Shown here: in pieces, positions 928-55,162 of the stretch
How the letters are laid out: every line of letters starts with the position of its first letter
How positions within the stretch are numbered: the first letter of the stretch is position 1
Assembly (NCBI GenBank): GCA_964106645.2
Contig: OZ067039.1
Source: Podarcis pityusensis
Taxonomy: Eukaryota
Reading direction: 5' to 3' (one strand)
DNA length: 64,000 bases
Made by a program: the position numbers and the translations under genes
The notes under the pieces: generated by a model
The model's input: only the letters and a program-made list of their open reading frames with translations
Databases searched by the model: none
What the model was told of the DNA's origin: nothing

Positions 928-1335
928 TGTGATGGGACGATGAGCTGCTTGTGTGTAAAATCCTAGTCCCTCAGAGTTTGGTCAAGTTTGCAAACCTCTG
1001 TCTGTAACGGAGCCCCTTAAACATGGCTCCGTCAGTCGCTGGCAGATTCCGACAGTGGTTGCTTTCGGAATCGCTTCCAACATAAAAGCTCCTTAACGGA
1101 AACACGTCTTCTGGACTCTCTGCGTGACAGTTTCCGGCGAGGAGTGGGTGTCCCTACAGGAGGTCCTGAAACCTCCCCACTGTTTTCGCTGGAAGTGTCT
1201 CTGAGCCATCCCTCCAGCTCCCTTTCCCTCAGCTCAGCTCCTCTCCCCCTACTGGTTCCCTCTTCAGCTGCTGAGTCTCTCCCAACCTGTGTGAGCCCTT
1301 TCACTTCCCTTCCTTCCGATGGCAGTTCCCTGACA
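928..1335 (-). repeat. 5' LTR, family A (408 bp)
   Basis: Sense TGTCAGGGAACTGCC...CCCATCACA; same length as the solo LTR at 33986-34393, with about 6 substitutions. Confidence 0.95.
1032..1334 (-). CDS. LTR-encoded reading frame (100 aa, no ATG; Arg-rich C-terminus)
   Basis: Open from LTR nt 2 (VRELPS...) to TGA; C-terminus conserved at amino-acid level in the diverged LTR at 26554-26883. Probably translated only in the 3' LTR context. Confidence 0.6.
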   Translation of the reverse strand, partial: VRELPSEGREVKGLTQVGRDSAAEEGTSRGRGAELRERELEGWLRDTSSENSGEVSGPPVGTPTPRRKLSRRESRRRVSVKELLCWKRFRKQPLSESASD

Positions 1336-6530: not shown

Positions 6531-6895
6531 GGGACGCGGGTGGCGCTGTGGGTAAAAGCCTCAGCGCCTAGGGCTTGCCGGTCGAAAGGTCGGCAGTTTG
6601 AATCCCCGCGGTGGGGTGCGCTCCCGTTGCTCGGTCCCAGCGCCTGCCAACCTAGCAGTTCGAAAGCACCCCTGGGTGCAAGTAGATAAATAGGGACCGC
6701 TTACTGGCGGGAAGGTAAACGGCGTTTCCGTGTGCTGCGCTGGCTCGCCAGATGCGGCTTTGTCACGCTGGCCACGTGACCCGGAAGTGTCTCCGGACAG
6801 CGCTGGCCCCCGGACTCTTGAGTGAGATGGGCGCACAACCCTAGAGTCTGTCAAGACTGGCCCGTACGGGCAGGGGTACCTTTACCTTTACCTTT
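6531..6895 (+). mobile_element. Full-length Sauria SINE
   Basis: GGGACGCGGGTGGCGCTGTGG head with A/B boxes, (ACCTTT)n tail, TSD AATCACTTTATT. Confidence 0.92.
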
Positions 6896-8189
6896 AATCA
6901 CTTTATTGCTTTGAAGAATGCATTGATGGCTTACTTGCATTGATCGTTTACTTAGTATTGCACCTTGTTGATAGCACAACATAATACTAACATGCTATAT
7001 ATTATTAGCATTTGACATTCCCCCTTTGTAGCACAAGTCGTTGTGAACCTGTGCAGGCATAGCATTTACTATGTGATGGATCATAGCAGTTTTGCATAAA
7101 AGTATGCCTGCACCAGCACTCTAATCTAAAAATGTATCTCAGCATAACACACACAGCCAGTTGAAAACACACACTATTCAGTGTCCTGTCCTGTGAGCTA
7201 TGTGGAAAACTTCTCACAATGTCCCTTCATTGGTTCCCCACCATTTCCTTCATGCTAGCAAATGTCCTACCGATGCTCCCACTCCTCCACAATTACAGAA
7301 TTCCTATCCCTTTATTTTTAAAATCTGATTTTGAGTAGTTGTTCTTACTCACTGTAATCAGACATCTTTCTTTCCTTGTCATTTTCACCTCCTGACAGAT
7401 CTTGCCGTGCACCACAGTTAGTTTACATACTGAGCACATTCCAACTAAAGATCAGATCTGTTTTGGATTTTTAAAAAACCCCACAAATTAATGGTGTTGA
7501 GAATTAGATAATTGGTTTTTTATATGCTGGGGTTGATGGGAGTTGTAGCTCAAAACATCTGGAGGTCACTGGGTTGGTGAAAGCTGTATTATACAGCTTA
7601 AACAATTCTGAATTATACTGTTATTTCATGTATTTTATAAAAGGGGAACAAGGGTTCTTAAATTGTCTGTTGCTTTGTCTTCCTTCTCGTAATCTTATCA
7701 TTTCAGTAAGTTTTGACGCAAAAACAGTTAAGCTCAGCTAAGACCATTTGAGTTCAGTGGGAGTGCATAAATCCCACTAAATTGGGCTTAAAAGGGCTTT
7801 ACTTTGTCAGAATCATGTGTCTGTTTTTTTTAAAAAATTACTTGCTCAAGCAATAAGCCGAAGAAGAAAAATCGGGGGGAAATAAATTTTTGAAAAAAGG
7901 AAGGAGAGAGAAGTTTATTGGAAATCAAAATATGAAATAAAATGATTCTGTAGAAAAGGTAGAAGGGTGAATGAAACGAGGATTCAGTAGAAACACTGCA
8001 TAAAGATAAATACTATATCATAAAGTCTGGCCATGAACTACAAGCTTGCACTTAAACTCTCCGTCCTTAAAATACAGCTACTTTTCAGTTCTGGAATAGC
8101 CAGGATAGGTTAGTTGGGTTGATTAAGCTGTTCGTTTGCCTTTATAGGACTATGTATTTCCACATAAGCGGAAGCATATAAGAACATAA

Positions 8190-13790: not shown

Positions 13791-13813
13791 AATGTGTCAA
13801 ATATATGCATAGG

Positions 13814-14164
13814 TAAAGGTAAAGGGACCCCTGACCATTAGGTCCAGTCGTGACCGACTCTGGGGTTGCGATGCTCATCTCGCTTTATTGGCCAAGGGAG
13901 CCGGCGCACAGCTTCCAGGTCATGTGGCCAGCATGACTAAGCCGCTTCTGGCGAACCAGAGCAGCGCACGGAAACGCCGTTTACCTTCCCTCCGGAGCGG
14001 TACCTATTTATCTACTTGCACTTTTTTGGCGTGCTTTCGAACTGCTAGGTTGGCAGGAGCAGGGACCGAGCAACGGGAGCTCACCCCATTGCTGGGATTC
14101 GAACTGCCGACCTTCTGATCGGCAAGTCCTAGGCTCTGTGGTTTAACCCACAGTGCCACCCCTC
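13814..14164 (-). mobile_element. Sauria SINE
   Basis: (AAAGGT)n tail at left, head at right, TSD ATATGCATAGG. Confidence 0.92.
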
Positions 14165-24073: not shown

Positions 24074-25056
24074 CAGTGGTGCCCCGCAAGACGAATGCCT
24101 CGCAAGACGGAAAACTCGCTAGATGAAAGGGTTTTCCGTTTTTTGAGCTGCTTCGCAAGACGAATTTCCCTATGGGCTTGCTTCGCAAGACGAAAACGTC
24201 TTGCAAGTTTGTTTCCTTTTTCTTAACACCGTTAATACAGTTGCGACTTGACTTCGAGGAGCAACTCATAGAACGCAGTGTACATAGTAGCCTTTTTTTG
24301 AGGTTTTTAAAGACTTTGGTGATTTTTGAAGCTTTTCCAAAACTTCTTTTGCAGCCATTTGGTAAGTTAAGCTTTTAAAACTTTTTTTGGGGGTTTTGGA
24401 TTTGGGGTTGGGGTGTTTGGAATTCAAGGACTTGGTGTTGGGGAGGGGTTTGCAAGAATCTGGAAGCTTGTGTGTTTTTTTCTGCATTTTTATGATTTTC
24501 TGTGACCATTGGGGCACTCTGCTGTTTTTTTAAAAAAATTCTGGATTTGAATTTCTGTGTGCTGGGTGGCTGGGGGAACAGTTGGGGAGGGGTTTGCAAG
24601 AATCTGGAAGCTTGTGGTTTTTTTTTCTGCATTTTTATGATTTTCTGTGACCATTGGGCCACTCTGCTGTTTTTTTTAAAAATTTCTGGATTTGAATTTC
24701 TGTGTGCTTGGTGGCTGGGGGAACAGTTGGGGAGGGGTTTGCAAGAATCTGGAAGCTTGTGTGTTTTTTTCTGCATTTTTATGATTTTCTGTGACCATTG
24801 GGCAACTCTGCTGTTTTTTTAAAAAAATTCTGGGTTTGAATTTTGAAATGCTCTTTACAGTATGTGTGACTTTAAAGAGCACTTAATAAACTCTTGTTGT
24901 ACCAAATTTGGCTTTGTTTGGACTTTTTTTGACCATAGGAACACATTAATTGATTTTCAATGCATTCCTATGGGAAACCGTGCTTCGCAAGACGAAAAAT
25001 TCGCTAGACGAAAAAATTCGTGGAATGAATTAATTTCGTCTTGCGAGGCACCACTG
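24074..25056. mobile_element. Non-autonomous Tc1/mariner-type element (983 bp)
   Basis: TIR CAGTGGTGCC(C/T)CGCAAGACGAA, TA TSD, repeated subterminal CGCAAGACG motifs. Confidence 0.9.
24438..24843. repeat. Tandem repeat, about 145-bp unit x 2.8, inside the transposon
   Basis: TTGGGGAGGGGTTTGCAAGAATCTGGAAGC recurs at 24438, 24582 and 24727. Confidence 0.92.
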
Positions 25057-26449: not shown

Positions 26450-26884
26450 TGTAATGGTTCTAGGGGTTGCTCGTGCGTAAGCCGGTGTAAACACCTGGCT
26501 GGGTTGCCTGAGTGAACCTTTTCTGTCCGGACAGCCACTCACCCGTGGCTGTCTCAATCGCTGGCAGAATCCGTCAGTGGGCGTTTCTTAAACTTCTTCC
26601 AGCAAAGAAGCTCTTTGACGCCTAGTCTCCTCCTACTCTCTCTGCGTGAAAGCCTTCTGCGCAAGGAGGGCGTAGGCAGCGGAGGACCTCTACTCTCCCC
26701 GCTGGTCCCCGGCAAGGAGTCATGGGACCGCCTTGCCGCTTCCCCCATCTGCCCCCCTTCTCCACTGGTGCTACGCTGATTCTCTTCCCCAGAAGATGGG
26801 CTGCCTCTCCCAATCCCGGGACGCTCTCTGGAATCCCTCTGGATTTTGCTCTCTCCCTCCGGCACTGATGGCAGTTCCCTGACA
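26450..26884 (-). mobile_element. Solo LTR, family B (435 bp), sister family of LTR A
   Basis: Sense TGTCAGGGAACTGCCATC...CCATTACA; 5-bp TSD CCTGG at 26445-26449 and 26885-26889. Confidence 0.92.
26554..26883 (-). CDS. LTR-encoded reading frame, family B (109 aa)
   Basis: VRELPS...PTPSLRRRLSRRESRRRLGVKELLCWKKFKKRPLTDSASD*, homologous to the family A frame. Confidence 0.55.
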   Translation of the reverse strand, partial: VRELPSVPEGESKIQRDSRERPGIGRGSPSSGEENQRSTSGEGGQMGEAARRSHDSLPGTSGESRGPPLPTPSLRRRLSRRESRRRLGVKELLCWKKFKKRPLTDSASD

Positions 26885-28086
26885 CCTGGACTGGTCAGAA
26901 GAATGGCAAAGTCAGATTGAAAAAATCCAGTTTCCAAGCAAACGGCAGCGATGAGGAGGGGAATTGTGCTACAAGGGTCATTCATACAAGTACCCATACA
27001 AGCACTCGCTTGTATTGTTACCCTTGAACAAACAAATAAAAGGCCTTTGCCCAGCACGTGCTTCTTTCTGGTCTTTCTGGCTTGGAAGGTCTACAATTAT
27101 TCACCCCTGACCTTTCCCAAACCGAAAAGTTCTGTATATCCATTGCTGGGCTCTTGTCCTGCAGTCAGTTTCCACCGGGCAAGAAGAAACAGCCAACACA
27201 ACACAAGCTTTTTGTAACAGTTTGAAGCACCTGCGCTCTGGATGCAGACACCCTTTAGCCGAATCAGTGTGTCACACACACAAGCTCCCCTGTTCATTTT
27301 CTGTGCTCTGCAATATCAAGGAGACACCGCTTTCAGCACATCTGCTTTCCATTTCCCTGGATTCTGCCTCCTCTCTGCTGTTGCTGCACGGTTACTAAAA
27401 TGGTAATTTAATCTGTTCCTTTTCCTCTTGTACTCATGCAATGAAAAAAGTGATCATGACTATGCTGGATGGAGCTGAAATTCACTGGCGGAATAATGTT
27501 TTGCCACAGCTGAAGCAAGCACTATACACATTATTTTTAGGTGCGTCCCTAGGATGATTGAAGTGGACACCTTAATGCCATGTGATGAATATGTGTTTGC
27601 AGCTATGTGTATCACAAACATAAATTTGTCAGGGATTGGTTACAGAAGGGGAAGGGAGACTTAAGGCTTGCGGGATCTACTTAGTTCCTCCACCCTAGAA
27701 TCCTGAGGTCTACCAACTGGAGCAAAGTACAAATAGTGGCGTACATGTGCTAGGAATTAGGGAATAGGGTGCTTTTGAGCGTATGCTAAGCCCAGGAATC
27801 TTTTTATCAGTACCATGCTAACACATTCTTTAATACAAACCCCCACCCCTGGTTTCCCCTCCCCCTCCAGCATTCGCCTCCCTCAATCTAATTCATTTGC
27901 GGGAGGAGTTTGATGCTATTGTTGTACAGTTGGGAATCAGAAACACTTCCTGATCTACTGCAAATTACCCAGAGATTTTCCCAACAGCTACCCGTCAGGT
28001 GCCAATACCCCTTAAGCAATATGTAGAGATTCAGAAGCAAAGCATGATGGATGTTGAAAGCATTTCCCCATGCTTCTAATTCTTAG

Positions 28087-28567
28087 CACTGGTGGAGGAA
28101 GGTGGGTGCAGGGGGGGCATCGCTCTGGGTGTCATCCCTGAGCGGGGGTGACATTCGGCGCACAGCCTGCCCGCGACTCAGACTCCCACACCTACCTCGA
28201 GCCGTTGGGGGAAGGGGGGGAGCTGCTGCGCTGCTTTGACGGTTCCTTCCTCCCCTCTTCCTGTTCGCCTGCCTCCTTCCCATCCTCTTCCCTGCCTCCC
28301 TGCCTCCTCCAGCCGGGACCATGGCGCAGCAGCTCCCCCTTCCCCTGGTGGCTGGTGGTAGGTGCGAGAGTCACGGGCGGGCAGTGCGTCATTGCCCCGT
28401 GCACCCAGCTGGAGGAGGCAGGCAGGCAGGGGAGAGGATGGAAAGGAGGCAGGCGAGCGAGAAGATCGGTGGGTGCGTGTGCGGCTATCCTGCTCCTGGG
28501 AGGGCACCCTCCGTGCCCCTCGGGAGCGCCCCCACCCTGGGCAGCGCGGGCATATGCTCCGCCACTG
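28087..28567. mobile_element. Non-autonomous hAT element with internal inverted repeats
   Basis: TIR CACTGGTGGAG / CTCCGCCACTG; perfect 8-bp TSD ATTCTTAG. Confidence 0.85.
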
Positions 28568-31196
28568 ATTCTTAGGCAGGAAGATGGCAATGAAGGCTAG
28601 CTTTGGATGGTTGGGCATCTGAAGCAGAACATGCAAGCAATGCCCCTGCATGATAACAAATATAAGAATTAAATAACTGGCTGTTTGTTGTTCCCTAATG
28701 ACAAACCATCACCTCCTGCCTTTGACAGCTGCCTTGGTTTGCTTCATGGCTGGTTGGATCTGGTGTCCACCATAGCTCTTGGCTTGGGTTTGTTTATTGC
28801 GTCCCTTGAGCTGATGGGGGAGCCCTTGACGAGAATTCTGTTTCTCACAATGTGTGTTTACAACTGTAGCAAACATTGCTTTGTGGGTGTGGCTGCATCC
28901 GGAAAGGGAAGGTGCCATCTGTGAAATGCTGCGTCAGTGAAGCATGCTACGATGCAATATTAGTAAATCTCACCAATTGCTTTAATTGTGCTTGGCCACA
29001 AAACAATTCACAGCCTAACCCATACGTTAAACAAACACAAGGGTTCCCATTCCCTTGAGCATAGCTCCGATGAAACATGTTGTTTATAATGTGCTTATTT
29101 GCTGATTGGGAGGTCAAGCATGTTTGACATTCCCAGCTCTCTCTTAACTAGGATCTGCGCTTTGCTATCAGGCCCATCTCCCACCCTGCCCTCACCCACA
29201 GAAACCACATTTCCATTTTCTAGTGAAATGTTTACAGCTTGGAAGTTGCAGAGATAATTTTAACCATCTGCCTTACCTCCAAGAAGGGAAAGTTTTAATT
29301 GTTTGGTTTTTTTGTTTTTTTTATTTTAAAGAATGTCCTTTTAAAAAACTTCAGCTCCTTTTTGACACTTTAGGATCTACAAATTATGTGACTGTTTACT
29401 TTAAGCATCTGGATGTAGAAAACAGTCATTGATTCAAGGGCCCCAGGAAAGTAAACAGTGCAACACCCGCCAGTCACTCAGTTGTCACATGCAATTGGAG
29501 GTGACACAAGAGATTGCATGCCAAATACCTTGGCAGTTGGCAGGCACGTGCTCTTGTCCCACCAATGCGGGTACAAGAAGGGTGATGGCGGAACAAACCT
29601 GGTTTTTATCTCCCACCAGGCCTGGCCTTATATGACGAAAATACAAGATAGCCCCTCTGGGTTCTTTTCTGCATTATGGGCTGGGCTATCAGTGTGGCAC
29701 ATATAAATACGTATACCAGCACTAAGGAAGAATATCATAGCCTCCAACTTTCCTCAGATGAAAAGACATTTCTCACTCCCTCACAACTAATCATCCTCCA
29801 CCCACCCCCCATTTTTGTTGCCACCGCTGCAGAACATTTCCTATCCAAAGGGAAAATGTCACCACCACTTCACACAGCAAACACAACCTCCACCATCCTG
29901 AGAAAACCCCGTAATCTCAATTTTATTTTATTCTTTGGTAGATTTACAAAAAGAAAAACACACACCAATATATAAATTTTAGAAAGGGGCAAGATTAGAC
30001 ACAGACACATGACGTATACATTTAAATCAAGTCTTCTTGCACTCGGCTCTGCTCCGCCTTTCTTTCTGCCCAGGGTAGCCCTGCCCTCTGCCTGCCCCTG
30101 GTGCTTCAAATGGGGTTGAACCATGGCGGTGGGAGCCTCACTTCCTCCTTGCCTGTTCTCCAGCAGTCATTGGGGGAGGCTGGCAGCAGCGGCTATGGAG
30201 AGGCCATGGAAAAGCAATAGGATGCTCCCTCACTGCCGCCACCACTCAGGACAAGCACCATCTCCTCCTCCTCCTCAAGCTTGATGGCAGAATCACTAGC
30301 AGGGGAAATTGGGACATTCCAGGATGAAATCAGAAGCTGGGATGGCTTTTGTAATTCCAGGACTGTCTGTGGGAAATCAGGACTCTTGGAGGATATGGAA
30401 TATTTCCTCGTCCTTTCTGGGGAAGGATATTTGAGACTTGTGGGTACCCTGGGTAGTATCGCTTGTGCTATTGTGGGAGTTGCATAACTGACAGTGGAAT
30501 CTGCTTGGTCGCCCACAGTTACTGGACTACTTGAGCCTCTGTGCTTAAGAGGCTTCTGATCAGAAGGCTCCAAATGCCTGCAGTTCCTCTCTTCCGATTG
30601 GGCGATCAGTGAATTGGAACACTCTGTGGACTAGCACTTTGGTGATGTGTAACCCCTGCCCGGGAATAGCGTGAGAAATGCTCAATGGCCTTTCAGCGTC
30701 ACGTGTGAAAATGCCCTGTGTGTGAACTGACTGTGTTCTAAGAGATGGCCTTTAGAAGATTTACACTGATCTGTGGATCCTGCTTTAGATAGTTTTTGTT
30801 TACTCGGCATCTGCATTCAGGCTGCCTTAGCAAACTCTTGGCTTGAGCTCCTGGTAGCTCCGAGCACCCTCTCCTGTTAATCTCTACAATTGTTTGTTTT
30901 ATGGTGTAGACTACTTTGCATTGTCAGGACATCATCCCTGGACAGTGTTTTCCTTGGCAGCATTTCTAGGTCTGAATCTTGGCCTCTCCAGATTTCTCGT
31001 CATTAGCAGTCAGAAAAAATGCTAAGCAGGCTCTGGCTGTTTCTGCTCACAATTTGTGGCAACTTGCAGAGGGTTAATGAATGCCTCTCCTCCCCACCCT
31101 CCCCGGATGCTTTGCATGAGGCATTTAGGGTGACAGAAAAATTGTAACCTCCTGCTCCAGAAGCAGATGATTTAACATCTCTCTGCACCCTTTATA

Positions 31197-31422
31197 CAGT
31201 GGTACCTTGGGTTAAGAACTTAATTCATTCTGAAAGTCCGTTCTTAACCTGAAACTGTTCTTAACCTGAGATACCACTTTAGCTAATGGGGCCTCCTGCT
31301 GCCGCCGTGCTGCCACCGCGCGATTTCTGTTCTCATCCTGAAGCAAAGTTCTTAACCTGAGGTACTGTTTCTGGGTTAGCGGAGTCTGTAACCTGAAGCG
31401 TCTGTAACCTGAGGTACCACTG
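31197..31422 (+). mobile_element. Tc1/mariner MITE (same family as 1931-2172)
   Basis: TIRs, TA TSD, colinear with 1931-2172. Confidence 0.9.
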
Positions 31423-31713
31423 TAGTTAGACATATGCAGACGCTGAAACTGATTTGTAACTCTGTTTCCTTCACCAGCATATTAAACCATGGGTAGCAAA
31501 TGTGGTGTTGGACTGCAGCTCCCATAATCCCTGACCCTTGATCATGGTAGTGGGGGCTGATGGAGGCTGGGGTCTAGCAGAATCTGGAAGGCACCATGTT
31601 AGTTGCCTCTGTATTGGGCAGATGTATCGATTAAGAGGTTTAAAAACCTCTTTTCAGGGCACCTTGCTCTTGCAAGGCAGCAGACAGAAAATTCCATCAC
31701 AAGACCTAATAAT

Positions 31714-32184
31714 CAGTGCCGGATTTATGTCTAGGCTAAGTAGGCTGAAGCCTAGGGCCTCTAAATCTAGGGGGCCTCGCCAGCCCTCCTGCTCCCCGGC
31801 AGGCGATCTCCCCTCTCCCAAGCCCAAGACTTCATGTGAGGACAGGGCAACTCGGGCCTCTAAGTCTAGGGGGCCTCGGCGGCCTGCTCCCCAGTTCCAC
31901 AGTCTCCCCTCTCCCAAAATTGCAAACCCAAAACTTCATTGCAAGGGCAGGGCAACTTGGGCCCAGCAACTATGAGACTCAGGGCTAGCCAGTAGGGCCC
32001 AATTTGAAGCATTGTGACCCAACCTTTTTTCTTTTGTAGGACCCCAGTTCACAGTCAAAGTCCGCAAAATCTTATAGATATAAATAAAATCCATCTAGAT
32101 TGCCCTGGTGCAGGGGCCCCCTTAGGAGCGGCCCGCGGGGCCCAATTTGGCCCAATTGCTCCAATTGGCTTAAGGTCAGCCCTG
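31714..32184. mobile_element. hAT-like non-autonomous element
   Basis: CAGTGCCGGATTTA / TAAGGTCAGCCCTG termini resemble 40338-41151; internal duplication of about 100 bp; TSD not preserved. Confidence 0.6.
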
Positions 32185-33985
32185 ATGAGTTTGTGCAGGG
32201 TTGGAATGAGAAGCCCTGCACCTTCTAGGTCCCTGGTGTCACTATTCAGAGTACAGACTCAAGGACTTGTTATGGGAATAAAGGGGGGGGGCAGTGTGTG
32301 TAGGAGAGTGCCTAGCAGTGCCAAGAGATATTGATTCTGCCATTGCCCCATGCCTCTTTAGGTTGTTGCTGGACACTCAGTGTGGCATTGCCCTCATTGC
32401 AGCCCCTGTTCTGGAATTAAGAAGCTCATTGCCTCTCCCTCTTCCTGTGGAAAGCATGTAGGGTATGGTCATAGGGATAGAGAGATGCCTCTATATGCTC
32501 TGAATGTAGTGGTGAATTGGAGCTTTCAGTTTAAAGCCAGAAGAAACAACACTAGCCATTTTCTTTTTGTCTGGCCAATTTCATCATCCTCTCATCAGTG
32601 TTCACTATGTTCAGAGGAACCAGCTAAAATTAGGATTTAGGAGAGAAAAAAACTTTCCCCCAGCGGCGCTTCCCCCCACCCTGGCATCAAATCTGTACAT
32701 CTATCAAGCCACCAGTGCTGGAACACAGCTAATCCCACAGTAGCTTCAAGGGGAAAGCTGCTCATATTGCTCCGAATAATTATCTGTACTCAGCCATACT
32801 GTATTGAATTAGCTAGCATGTGGCTACTATTAATCTTTCATCCATAATCTCAGCTTGCTAGGTGGACCACAGAAGACATAACTGAGGTTGCAGTCCTATA
32901 CTTGGAGTGGCTTACTTTTGAGTAGACATGCACAGGATTGTAATGTGCAGGCTTACTCCTAGGTAACTGCATGTTGCTTAAACTTCAGGCACGTTTCCAT
33001 TAAGCGGAAATTCGGAGAGGAACAGACTGGAATTCAGAGCCATTCATCAGCAAATTAACCTTGGAACGACTCCTACCTTCTTGCAGCGTTTACTGGACCC
33101 ATCACCTAGTTATCACAGCTGGATGGCTGGATTGTGTCTTCTCTCTGGAGTGTTATCTTGGAAGAGCATAATGGAAAGAAGAGGAAGAAGAAGAAGAAGA
33201 AGAAAAAGCTCCTGTTAAGATTGCGGTTGTCTGAACAGCTCTTGGCAGGAATAACAAATCGAGGTTGCCTCTGATCCTGCCAGACTTTTCTCTTTCATTA
33301 GCACAAATGTCAGTCCAGAGGAAAAAAACAAAACAAAAAACCCAACCCCATTTACTTTGGAGATGCTCTTGCAGCCTGTTGCATATTCTGTTCTGATCTG
33401 ACTGGATTGTTGGCAGAACAGGAGGAGACGGGCATAAATCACATGGGCTTTCTATCCTAGGGCATTTCTGCTCAATCTTTCGCAGCTCCAAGATCAGCTT
33501 TAAATTATTCCAGGAGGATGCTTGTTGTTGTTGTTGCTGTTGTTGTCTGATATGTTGGATACTGTTGACTTATTCCTGTTATGTTTCCGCAATAGTAGAA
33601 AACAGCCAGAGTCTTTTGCTTTTGGCAAAAAATGCTCTTCCCATTTCAGCAAAATGTTTTTCCTAGAGGGCAATGGCTGGAAAAAAATAATAGGGTTTAA
33701 AAAAAATAATTCTCTTTCCCCCTCCCAATTTTAAATAAATTGCAATCAGCTCTACAATCCATTTATTCAAACCAGATTCTCTGAATACAAGGAGGGAAAA
33801 AGCAACTACCAATAGCCTTTGCTGAACTGGTGCCTCTTAATGGCAAAAACTTCCTTCTAACTGGAACAGCATTTCTCCTGTATCTTTCTGCTGAAGATAC
33901 TGTTGTCAGGGCACAAACCCTGCAACCATAGATCAATGGGTTATTACATCCATGAGTTATTACATAACTCCCAGTTTATGCTGGG

Positions 33986-34393
33986 TGTCAGGGAACTGCC
34001 ATCGGAAGGAAGGGAGGTGAAAGGGCTCACACAGGTTGGGAGAGACTCAGCAGCTGAAGAGGGAACCAGTAGGGGGAGAGGAGGTGAGCTGAGGGAAAGT
34101 GAGCTGGAGGGATGGCTCAGAGACACTTCCAGCGAAAACAGTGGGGAGGTTTCAGGACTTCCTGTAGGGACACCCACTCCTCGCCGGAAACTGTCACGCA
34201 GAGAGTCCAGAAGACGTGTTTCCGTTAAGGAGCTTTTATGTTGGAAGCGATTCCGAAAGCAACCACTGTCGGAATCTGCCAGCGACTGACGGAGCCATGT
34301 TTAAGGGGCTCCGTTATAGACAGAGGTTTGCAAACTTGACCAAACTCTGAGGGACTTGGATTTTACACACAAGCAGCTCATCGTCCCATCACA
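33986..34393 (+). mobile_element. Solo LTR, family A (408 bp)
   Basis: TG...CA termini; 5-bp TSD CTGGG at 33981-33985 and 34394-34398; near-identical to 928-1335. Confidence 0.95.
33987..34289 (+). CDS. LTR-encoded reading frame, family A (100 aa)
   Basis: VRELPSEGRE...PTPRRKLSRRESRRRVSVKELLCWKRFRKQPLSESASD*. Confidence 0.55.
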   Translation, partial: VRELPSEGREVKGLTQVGRDSAAEEGTSRGRGGELRESELEGWLRDTSSENSGEVSGLPVGTPTPRRKLSRRESRRRVSVKELLCWKRFRKQPLSESASD

Positions 34394-39699: not shown

Positions 39700-40560
39700 C
39701 TCCCCCAAGCTTCCCCTGCTCCCTTCAGCATTCGCACGTAAGAAAAGTGAAGGATGCAGAAGTTCCTCCTTGGTCACGTGTGATTTCTTGGGTAGAACCA
39801 GCCCTTCCTCCCCCACAACACTTCACACTGGCTGACCGGCTTGAAAAGAGAAAAAGGGGAATGCATGGCTGGGCCCTTGGAGACACAGGTCCCAGGAATC
39901 ATATGTCAGAACCAGAGGTGGGTTATAGGGAAACTTTGCCTGCAGGCCAAATGCAGCCCTCCAGGCCACTCTGTCTGGTCCTCAGGCTCCTCCCAGGGCC
40001 ATGACCCTCACCAGCTTTGCTCTGCATCCTCTTCAAGGTTTTTTTTTTTTACAGCTTGGAATGTTTCCTTCAACTGTGATGATGCTTCTTGCTTAACAGG
40101 ATTAAGATTTTTGTTTTGTTTTGCATAGCAGCATAGAAACCTCTGGCTTTTGCACAGATGGTCATTCTTTAAGGCAGTTTGCTCCACTGCTTAACTTTCC
40201 CAGCATTTCTGATATGTGAGGTGCACTTGTTTCTCTGAATTAAAGTCAGAGACACTGATATTCTATTATTGTCAGTATACTGGTGGTTGCTGGTTTAGCT
40301 GGTCAGTCAAAGTTGTTCCTGGGGTGTGGGTGCTGTTCAGGGCTGGATTTAGGTTTGATGAGGCCCTAAGCTACTGAAGGTAATGGGGCCCTTTATATGT
40401 CCAGCTGTCCTTTGTCAACAACAAATTGTCACTGCTTTTTGTGTTGAATATATGCTATATGGTAATTTATGAACCTAATAGGCATCTAAAGCCATTTGCA
40501 CATAACAAAAATGTGTTTTATCAAAGTAATTGTTGAACTGAAATACAACTAAGAAGTATA

Positions 40561-40917
40561 AAGGTAAAGGTAAAGGGACCCCTGACCATTAGGTGCAGTC
40601 GTGGCTGACTCTGGGGTTGCGGCGCTCATATCGCTTTATTGGCCAAGGGAGCCAGCGTGCAGCTTCTGGGTCATGTGGCCAGCATGACTAAGCCGTTTCT
40701 GGCGAACCAGGGCAGCGCACGGAAACGCCGTTTACCTTCCCGCTGGAGCGGTACCTATTTATCTACTTGCACTTTGACATGCTTTAGAACTGCTAGGTAG
40801 GCAGGAGCAGGGACCGAGCAATGGGAGCTCACCCCATCGTGGGGATTCGAACCGCCGATCTTCTGATAGGCAAGCCCTAGGCTCTGTGGTTTAACCCACA
40901 GCGCCATCCATGTCCCC
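40561..40917 (-). mobile_element. Sauria SINE nested in the hAT MITE
   Basis: (AAAGGT)n tail, TSD AAGAAGTATA. Confidence 0.9.
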
Positions 40918-44375: not shown

Positions 44376-44744
44376 GGGACACGGGTGGCGCTGTGGGTAA
44401 AACCTCAAGTGCCTAGGACTTGCTGATCGCATGGTCGGCGGTTTGAATCCCCGCGGCGGGGTGAGCTCCCGTTGTTTCGGTCCCAGGTCCTGCCCACCTA
44501 GCAGTTCGAAAGCACCCTTAAGTGCAAGTAGATAAATAGGTACCGCTTTATAGCGGGAAGGTAAACGGCGTTTCTGTGTGCTGCGCTGGTGCTGGCTCGC
44601 CAGCTGCAGCTTCGTCACGCTGGCCACGTGACCCGGAAATGTCTTCAGATGGCGCTGGCTCACGGCCTCTTGAGCGAGATGAGCACGCAACCCTAGAGTC
44701 GGACACGACTGGCCCGTACGGGCAGGGGTACCTTTACCTTTACC
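44376..44744 (+). mobile_element. Full-length Sauria SINE
   Basis: Head, core and (ACCTTT)n tail; TSD TATCCATTGATATA. Confidence 0.92.
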
Positions 44745-44763
44745 TATCCATTGATATAAAGTA

Positions 44764-54653: not shown

Positions 54654-54814
54654 TGATGGGGTGGGAGCATAATTCACCCTATGCAAAGGTGTTCACACCT
54701 TGACTACAGCTAGATTAGGAATGGCTAAAGGATGAATTGGGAATGGACTGAAGCTGGTTTGAGAAACAGCTAATCGAACAATAGTATTTTATAACAAAGT
54801 ACAGGATGCATAAA

Positions 54815-55162
54815 GGGACGTGGGTGGCACTGTGGGTTAAACCACAAAGCCTAGGACTTGCCGATCAGAAGGTCAGCGGTTCGAATCCCTGTGGCGGGGT
54901 GAGCTCCTGCTAACCTAGCAGTTCAAAAGCACGTCAAAGTGCAAGTAGATAAATAGGTACTGCTCTGGCGGGAAGGTAAACGGCGTTTCCGTGCACTGCT
55001 CTGGTTTGCCAGAAGCGGCTTAGTCATGCTGGCCACATGACCTGGAAGCTGTACGCCGGCTCCCTCGGCCAATAAAGCGAGATGAGCGCCACAACCCCAG
55101 AGTCGTTCACGACTGGACCTAAAGGTCAGGGGTCCCTTTACCTTTACCTTTACCTTTACCTT
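54815..55162 (+). mobile_element. Sauria SINE with a small internal deletion
   Basis: Head, (ACCTTT)n tail, TSD TACAGGATGCATA. Confidence 0.92.

Follow-up and report, generated by a model that had tools for sequence, protein, structure and literature searches.

The LTRs of two Ty3/gypsy retrotransposon families of the lizard Podarcis pityusensis encode the last 100 (family A) or 109 (family B) residues of Pol. Judged from its sequence, this segment belongs to a self-priming, chromovirus-type element and likely, at a probability of roughly 0.6, forms the last part of a tail that tethers the integrase to chromatin. Both families are self-priming and bear a chromodomain. The window, that is the whole 64-kb stretch of DNA that was analysed, contains three LTRs of the two families, A being very young and B older (Table 1), and both solo LTRs are flanked by 5-bp TSDs. 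Family A is abundant in the genome; its copies include LTR pairs without differences, and in many of them pol is open over a long stretch.

Table 1. Positions in the 64-kb window of the family A and B LTRs and of their parts.
Feature	Position	Strand	Remarks
Solo LTR, family A	33986..34393	+	408 nt, TGT...ACA, TSD CTGGG
Last 100 Pol/integrase codons and stop, coded by family A LTR	33987..34289	+	
Basic cluster and hydrophobic Cys-Trp motif, family A	34182..34262	+	CW codons 34239-34244; purifying selection
Predicted self-primer / transcript start, family A solo LTR	34265..34275	+	LTR nt 280-290; overlaps last codons
5' LTR of full-length family A element L001	928..1335	-	TSD CATAC; element runs on left of window
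Pol-tail frame inside 5' LTR of L001	1032..1334	-	
Predicted self-primer in 5' LTR of L001	1046..1056	-	
Primer-binding site of L001	915..925	-	exact complement of LTR nt 280-290
gag of L001	1..882	-	Retrotrans_gag, Ty3_capsid, zf-CCHC; runs off window
Solo LTR, family B	26450..26884	-	435 nt; TSD CCTGG on + strand
Last 109 Pol codons and stop, coded by family B LTR	26554..26883	-	CW codons 26599-26604
Predicted self-primer, family B solo LTR	26568..26578	-	

As the first-pass annotation had described, both LTRs are open in one frame from their second nucleotide, and the frames (303 and 330 nt) differ by the same 27 nt as the whole LTRs. Its remark that identical residues are written with other codons also holds, since 27 of the last 35 sense codons specify the same residue in A and B and 13 of these differ in codon (pS 0.77, pN 0.18). 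The frame contains no Met in family A, as had been stated, and one in family B. It was expected to be entered from the internal region across the PPT, and indeed the pol frame ends inside the 3' LTR of full-length copies, with read-through in 9/9 full-length family A copies and in 5/6 family B LTRs preceded by a PPT, these loci having been chosen for long open frames. A stop just before the 3' LTR had been named as speaking against this reading, and none separates pol from the tail in unbroken copies. Of the two possibilities left by the annotation, the C-terminal tail of Pol/integrase therefore stands, and the separate accessory ORF does not: the LTR segment is the end of Pol/integrase and not a nef- or sag-like gene. 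The coding sequences of HIV nef and MMTV sag overlap the U3 of the 3' LTR and are separate genes, whereas the lizard frame is continuous with pol and does not form a reading frame of its own.

The frame is retained in related families of this genome through eight recurring length classes of the LTR-coded linker, which differ by multiples of 3. Of the 127 LTR starts that have the hexamer TGYTGG, 102 carry it in the pol frame; it is so placed at all eight positions at which it was seen in frame in at least two copies, and 49 of 150 scored motif matches fall within a 1374-codon open frame; retrieval of the loci with protein queries biases such counts towards open frames. Two predicted proteins of Podarcis muralis, P0006 and P0008, carry the same tail at their C-terminal ends, and a P0015-type family was not found in the P. 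pityusensis genome. A profile search of 1.84 billion proteins gave 4606 matches, of which the best 150 are crowded by multi-chromodomain proteins; among these best 150, the named records that reach into the tail are Podarcis proteins. The gag/pol overlap of family A yielded no canonical slippery heptamer.

The domain order is PR-RT-RNase H-IN-SH3-chromodomain, two acidic FxGF repeats, PPT, the variable LTR-coded linker, and a basic plus Cys-Trp motif. With the Pfam Chromo domain at residues 1135-1182 (E 7e-10) behind PR-RT-RH-IN, the elements have the arrangement that defines chromoviruses. Two of the three methyl-lysine cage aromatics are lost from this chromodomain, the first and third positions being non-aromatic in 29/29 loci, so that it lacks the three-residue aromatic cage of type I and agrees with the way type II is described. 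Between chromodomain and LTR lie two repeats that resemble LEDGF/HRP2-binding motifs, each made of a hydrophobic helix, an acidic linker of 8-9 residues with S/T-x-x-D/E, and FxGF. Their layout is that of a TND-interacting motif (IBM), namely a helix, an acidic linker of 8-16 residues and FxGF. The D/ExExFxGF consensus of these motifs (PMC8022399) is present strictly in 18/34 and in relaxed form in 29/34 repeats, which had been chosen by an FxGF-type pattern, and in 30/34 position i is aromatic or Leu and position i+4 is Phe. Strict matches occur in 21/29 tails versus 12/8700 shuffles, a comparison that overstates independence because the 29 tails are related; in family A, to which the window's elements belong alongside B, repeat 1 is LxGF and the strict consensus is absent. 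When a profile of the repeats was searched against the PDB, the fusions of LEDGF with peptides that are deposited there were not among the matches. A complex prediction of the lizard LEDGF IBD (P0046 398-492) with the FxGF region (P0005 1186-1258), run with no alignment and no controls, scored 0.04 and carries no weight for or against binding.

The end of the tail has a median net charge of +9 over 25 residues, with two basic clusters around a hydrophobic core that contains the Cys; in A and B the clusters are of the RRxSRR type and are followed by the CW core. Among 82 tails, selected by the presence of C and W, a hydrophobic residue stands at -5 in 82/82 and Gly at -6 in 70/82, where all four Gly codons are in use. 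Arg mostly precedes Trp by 9-10 residues, by nine in 62/82 tails, and on this count the motif is not an exact RRSAR and probably not an exact CENP-C motif. An amphipathic helix was likewise dropped as a candidate, its helical moment not being above shuffles (median p 0.43). Pfam contained no family of relevance to the tails, nothing meaningful came from searching PDB sequences with the motif, with the FxGF region, with profiles of both or with the RRSARL tail of a second group (see below), and top scores in the ESM Atlas (0.76) stayed under the usable level. One further family, D, keeps the Trp without the Cys and has one FxGF only. The motif without a Pfam or PDB match, the FxGF profile that misses the PDB fusions and family D without Cys were counted against tethering.

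The basic plus CW motif is supported as being under purifying selection at the protein level. On internal branches of the 82 tails, omega is 0.34 for the motif once its C and W columns are removed, the six codons that precede C have 0.14, and omega reaches 1.28, 1.62 and 1.06 in the other frames. Across 29 loci, omega is 0.17 and 0.14 for the FxGF repeats, 0.20 for the motif and 0.11 for the chromodomain, while the LTR-coded linker (0.59) is weakly constrained and the last 8 codons (0.99) are not constrained as protein. The proposed comparison of dN/dS among LTR families gave low values for the motif, in the pol frame only, and the selection claimed for the whole segment holds for the motif (0.20-0.34) and fails for the last 8 codons. 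These codons overlap the predicted self-primer. Close to the stop, the S/T and E/D replacements that had been read as a sign of selection sit in this primer and are not evidence of protein selection, because compensating changes after the 5' LTR match it.

In 26/30 TSD-defined elements the primer-binding site pairs with part of the 5' LTR at 0-1 mismatch, comprising 10 different 11-mers, and no TGG of a tRNA-type site follows the 5' LTR of L001. Self-priming without a tRNA-type site, with the transcript start being predicted, is a trait of the Tf1/Sushi group, and the chromodomain integrase, the Tf2-1-like SH3 and the LTR-complementary primer-binding site recall these vertebrate V-clade chromoviruses (PMC6317226 and PMC4600332); this likeness rests on features, as the integrase tree contained no named reference element. 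The lizard elements differ in that their chromodomain is followed by ~190 additional residues, of which the LTR codes for 100, and most of the distant relatives retrieved end ~40-80 residues after the chromodomain core.

An integrase tail encoded in the LTR is in itself already known from plant CRM group A, in which a CR targeting motif is encoded in the 3' LTR, and the lizard families share this trait. However, CRM group A is primed by tRNA-Met, carries the CR motif where a chromodomain would be and sits at centromeres, whereas the lizard families are self-primed, retain a chromodomain that lacks the cage, possess FxGF repeats in addition and have dispersed copies. The repeats share helix, acidic linker and FxGF with the TND-interacting or IBD-binding motifs of MLL1, JPO2, IWS1 and PogZ (PMC9987994; PMC8022399), but these are host proteins with measured binding, and the lizard motif is doubled, lies on the integrase of a mobile element and is known from sequence. 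No report of such motifs in a retrotransposon integrase was found in the open-access literature searched. The basic end resembles the nucleosome-binding motif of HMGN and Dsup and CENP-C's arginine anchor in being short, rich in Arg and set within disordered sequence; the HMGN-type RRSAR(L) core is absent from A and B, which have RRxSRR-type clusters and the CW core instead.

Genomic RNA would start at about LTR nt 280, and only the 3' LTR of a full element would be translated; the frame in the 5' LTR of L001 is likely silent because it lies mostly upstream of the predicted start. The tail likely remains on the integrase, where the FxGF repeats may bind a host TFIIS-N-terminal-type domain (the LEDGF/HRP2 IBD) and the basic plus CW end may bind nucleosomes or DNA and probably doubles as nuclear import signal; the role in nuclear localisation or chromatin binding suggested for the basic segment by the annotation is plausible. 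Together, both parts could substitute for histone-mark reading by the chromodomain, and the LTR may keep its frame because promoter region and protein tail share the same DNA.

C-terminal NLSs are frequent on retrotransposon integrases, and acylation commonly occurs at a Cys that has basic and hydrophobic neighbours. The charge and the Cys-containing core would thus also fit a mere nuclear import signal or a membrane anchor via acylated Cys, with no role in insertion-site choice. We consider this rather unlikely, as a plain NLS would not require the hydrophobic residue at -5, the Gly at -6 or the Trp, as family D keeps its Trp without the Cys, and as the selected FxGF repeats would not be accounted for. 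Insertion steered to centromeres by a CENP-C-like anchor, as proposed for the plant CR motif, has the CRM precedent and the Arg pair 9-10 residues before Trp in its favor (CENP-C has R521/R522 and W530), but it is very improbable: the distance from Arg to Trp departs by one residue from the 8 residues between R522 and W530, the Arg itself varies, PDB searches gave no match, and young A copies lie scattered between 1.8 and 93.7 Mb on contig C1, with B copies on numerous large contigs.

Conservation at the DNA or RNA level, for example of a core promoter ~26 nt before the start site with the open frame as passive by-product, would agree with the position of the Cys codon 26 nt before the predicted self-primer in 19/24 elements, with the weakly constrained linker and with the last 8 codons, for which it is valid. 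For the motif it is largely refuted and equally improbable, because 5/24 elements have another spacing (25, 29, 31 or 33 nt), synonymous change is near saturation (pS 0.98, pN 0.20 over 27 codons), omega is low in the pol frame only, and the linker classes keep to multiples of 3. That the LTR contains an accessory gene, expressed through splicing or from an internal start, is most improbable: its position and the Met in some families speak for it, and against it stand the missing stop after pol, the Met-less frame of family A and Met positions that vary between families.

A second chromovirus group of this genome (L101-L104, L107) also reads into its own LTR and ends in RRSARL, verbatim the core of the HMGN acidic-patch motif. 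With its intact cage and without FxGF repeats, it is a natural control for the insertion-site choice of family A. Insertion-site choice of vertebrate chromoviruses is, to our knowledge, essentially uncharacterised, and an annotated genome suffices to obtain the insertion map of family A, because this family is abundant and, with its identical LTR pairs and long open pol, young.

Returning to the tethering tail, we tentatively suggest, with odds somewhat below even, that a vertebrate LTR lineage swapped methyl-lysine reading for tandem TND-interacting-motif mimics and an LTR-encoded nucleosome anchor, so that LEDGF/HRP2 would carry the integrase to transcribed chromatin. HIV integrase binds LEDGF via a pre-folded surface and not a linear motif (PMC6382798), and the lizard elements would have converged on the same cofactor via a host linear motif. 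Should LEDGF/HRP2 be bound by the FxGF repeats, the elements would exemplify mobile DNA that employs a genuine linear mimic of a TIM. Protein constraint acts on the evolution of the LTR U3 in these elements, a point to consider when LTRs are dated and when solo LTRs are read as promoters.

The open frames that the first-pass annotation described in the LTRs of families A and B are real (see table). Over the last 35 codons, the two families share 27 identical residues, 13 of these encoded by different codons (pS 0.77, pN 0.18). The window is part of contig C2, and a first look at the 1.5-Gb genome gave 1328 candidate copies of LTR A and 2390 of LTR B; Podarcis wall lizards supply the nearest named proteins. 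A canonical poly(A) hexamer is absent after the stop in A and B (window 34290-34393 and 26450-26553), and AATAAA is found about 30-55 nt past the stop in the LTRs of six of the seven more distant families checked.

LTRs and other repeats in the window
Feature	Position	Strand	Description
Family A solo LTR	33986-34393	+	408 nt, open for 100 codons from nt 2
Family A 5' LTR	928-1335	-	408 nt, open for 100 codons from nt 2
Family B solo LTR	26450-26884	-	435 nt, open for 109 codons
Tandem array	24437-24905		three to four copies of a 144-145 nt unit
SINE-like repeat, presumably Sauria SINE	6531-6896, 13802-14161, 40559-40916, 44376-44751, 54814-55158		about 350 nt, dispersed copies

Full-length A elements measure about 5.5 kb and have 5-bp TSDs, and the nine copies examined have 5' and 3' LTRs that are 99.5-100% identical. 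A pol frame that overlaps gag comes next and encodes protease, RT, RNase H, integrase, a Tf2-1-like SH3 domain and a chromodomain. In all nine copies the frame terminating within the 3' LTR continues without a stop through the PPT, and unbroken copies possess a single 1374-codon pol frame, present in 49 of 150 scored motif matches. Six of the eight fetched family B loci are PPT-preceded 3' LTRs, of which five are read through, while the sixth carries a frameshift immediately before the LTR. As the pol frame thus enters the 3' LTR, the segment is the C-terminus of Pol, one of the alternatives that had been proposed from the sequence. The Podarcis muralis predicted proteins P0006 and P0008 also terminate in this tail, where it is not annotated. 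The LTR-coded Pol tail is a real feature.

These elements have no tRNA-type PBS. Instead, an 11-mer within the LTR has its complement in bases 3-13 past the 5' LTR. From 34 LTR pairs, 30 elements with TSD-defined ends were counted; the match is perfect in 20, has at most one mismatch in 26 and is missing in 4, and 10 different 11-mers serve among the matching elements. Self-priming of this kind is described for Tf1/Sushi chromoviruses (PMC6317226, PMC4600332), and self-priming vertebrate chromoviruses are already known. From the position of the self-primer, transcripts are predicted to start at LTR nt 280 (A) and 307 (B), near the end of the segment, and therefore the tail would not be expressed from 5' and solo LTRs. 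In the window's own full-length element (locus L001) the PR-RT region is inverted. One of the junctions, some 170-260 nt to the left of window position 1, contains 87 nt (L001:5742-5828) for which just one other locus is identical (G000:C13:9642503-9642589), with an 80% paralogue on C7; this piece encodes an ankyrin repeat and is likely a captured host gene fragment.

Genome searches with diverged tails revealed many related families (L018-L100). Among 157 LTR-start matches, 30 lack TGYTGG, the Cys-Trp codons (chance matches, truncated LTRs and family D); in the other 127 it lies in the pol frame in 102, in +1 in 8 and in +2 in 17, counts that favour open frames, as loci were retrieved by protein queries and both LTRs of an element were included. 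In-frame positions seen in at least two copies (185, 188, 206, 215, 254, 260, 269 and 281) are spaced by multiples of three, and out-of-frame occurrences mostly lie 1-2 nt off a recurring in-frame position. A codon model for 82 distinct natural tails gave an omega of 0.34 on internal branches (p 2e-10) for 19 motif columns, with C and W left out; the six columns preceding C gave 0.14. Omega along the protein was obtained from 29 loci in a set of 57 long ones; the others had no open chromodomain-to-CW frame or were surplus A copies. Omega was 0.04 for SH3, 0.11 for the chromodomain, 0.17 and 0.14 for the first and second FxGF repeat, 0.59 for the LTR linker, 0.20 for the basic and Cys-Trp (CW) motif and 0.99 for the last 8 codons. 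The purifying selection suspected earlier thus holds for the motif, and not for the last 8 codons. The last codons overlap the self-primer, and this accounts for the S/T and E/D changes that had been listed as conservative.

The chromodomain keeps the middle Trp, and the first and third cage aromatics are missing in 29 of 29 loci, a cage loss resembling that of type II chromodomains. Two repeats follow, each with a short run of hydrophobic residues that ends in Phe, an acidic linker of 8-9 residues with S/T-x-x-D/E, and F/L-x-G-F; in repeat 1 of family A, Leu replaces the first Phe of FxGF. TND-interacting motifs (TIMs) have the same layout, with a linker phosphorylated by CK2 and an FxGF especially important for LEDGF and HRP2 (PMC9987994). 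The published consensus D/ExExFxGF (PMC8022399) is satisfied by 18 of 34 repeats and occurs in 21 of 29 tails, which are mutually related, versus 12 of 8700 shuffles. The genome encodes LEDGF and one paralogue, probably HRP2. Past the PPT, the LTR-coded linker leads to a motif whose hydrophobic core, containing Cys-Trp, lies between two basic clusters (median charge +9). All 82 tails have a hydrophobic residue at the fifth position before Cys, and 70 have Gly at the sixth, encoded by all four of its codons; the motif has no match in Pfam or PDB.

We think, with a probability of roughly 0.6, that the tail remains attached to integrase, that its FxGF repeats would dock on an LEDGF/HRP2-type domain, and that the basic and CW end may hold nucleosomes or DNA and probably also imports the complex into the nucleus. 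That the tail serves import or membrane anchoring only is a rather doubtful alternative; it would account for the charged, hydrophobic end but does not explain the FxGF repeats, which are under selection. A constraint at the DNA level is very improbable: the self-primer does overlap the last codons, but omega in the other frames of the motif is 1.28 (+1), 1.62 (+2) and 1.06 (reverse). Centromere targeting, another conceivable role for a chromatin-binding end, is equally improbable, as the copies are dispersed. A separate accessory gene, suggested by the position of the frame in the LTR, has the least chance of all given the continuous pol frame.

Among the matches listed, the CW tail occurs in lacertid lizards and two further records. 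The Podarcis muralis proteins P0200, P0309 and P0310 represent a further relative in which the chromodomain is more eroded and FxGF-like remnants precede a longer tail. The 38-Mb contig C19 carries a large share of the matches of older related families, as would be expected for a non-recombining sex chromosome. In the open-access literature we found no description of this lizard lineage and no report of retrotransposon integrases that carry TIM-like or HMGN-like motifs.

Searching the genome with Pfam Chromo also brought up a second young chromovirus group with many near-identical copies (L101-L107, e.g. G000:C10:8776500-8783800), with frames of 1270 codons (pol) or 1623 codons (gag-pol). Its integrase is about 50% identical to that of families A and B and falls outside their clade; all three cage aromatics are present, the FxGF repeats are absent, and the self-complementary PBS has 10 nt. 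In five of seven loci, pol extends into the 3' LTR for about 115 codons and has RRSARL at its end, the exceptions being L105, which stops at the LTR start, and L106, which has a deletion; similar RRSAR motifs stand at the ends of proteins P0019 and P0303. RRSARL forms the core of the HMGN motif, in which an arginine anchor makes the contact with the acidic patch of the nucleosome (PMC12487698). By analogy with this second group, whose LTR-coded end carries that core, it appears more likely that LTR-coded basic ends contact nucleosomes.
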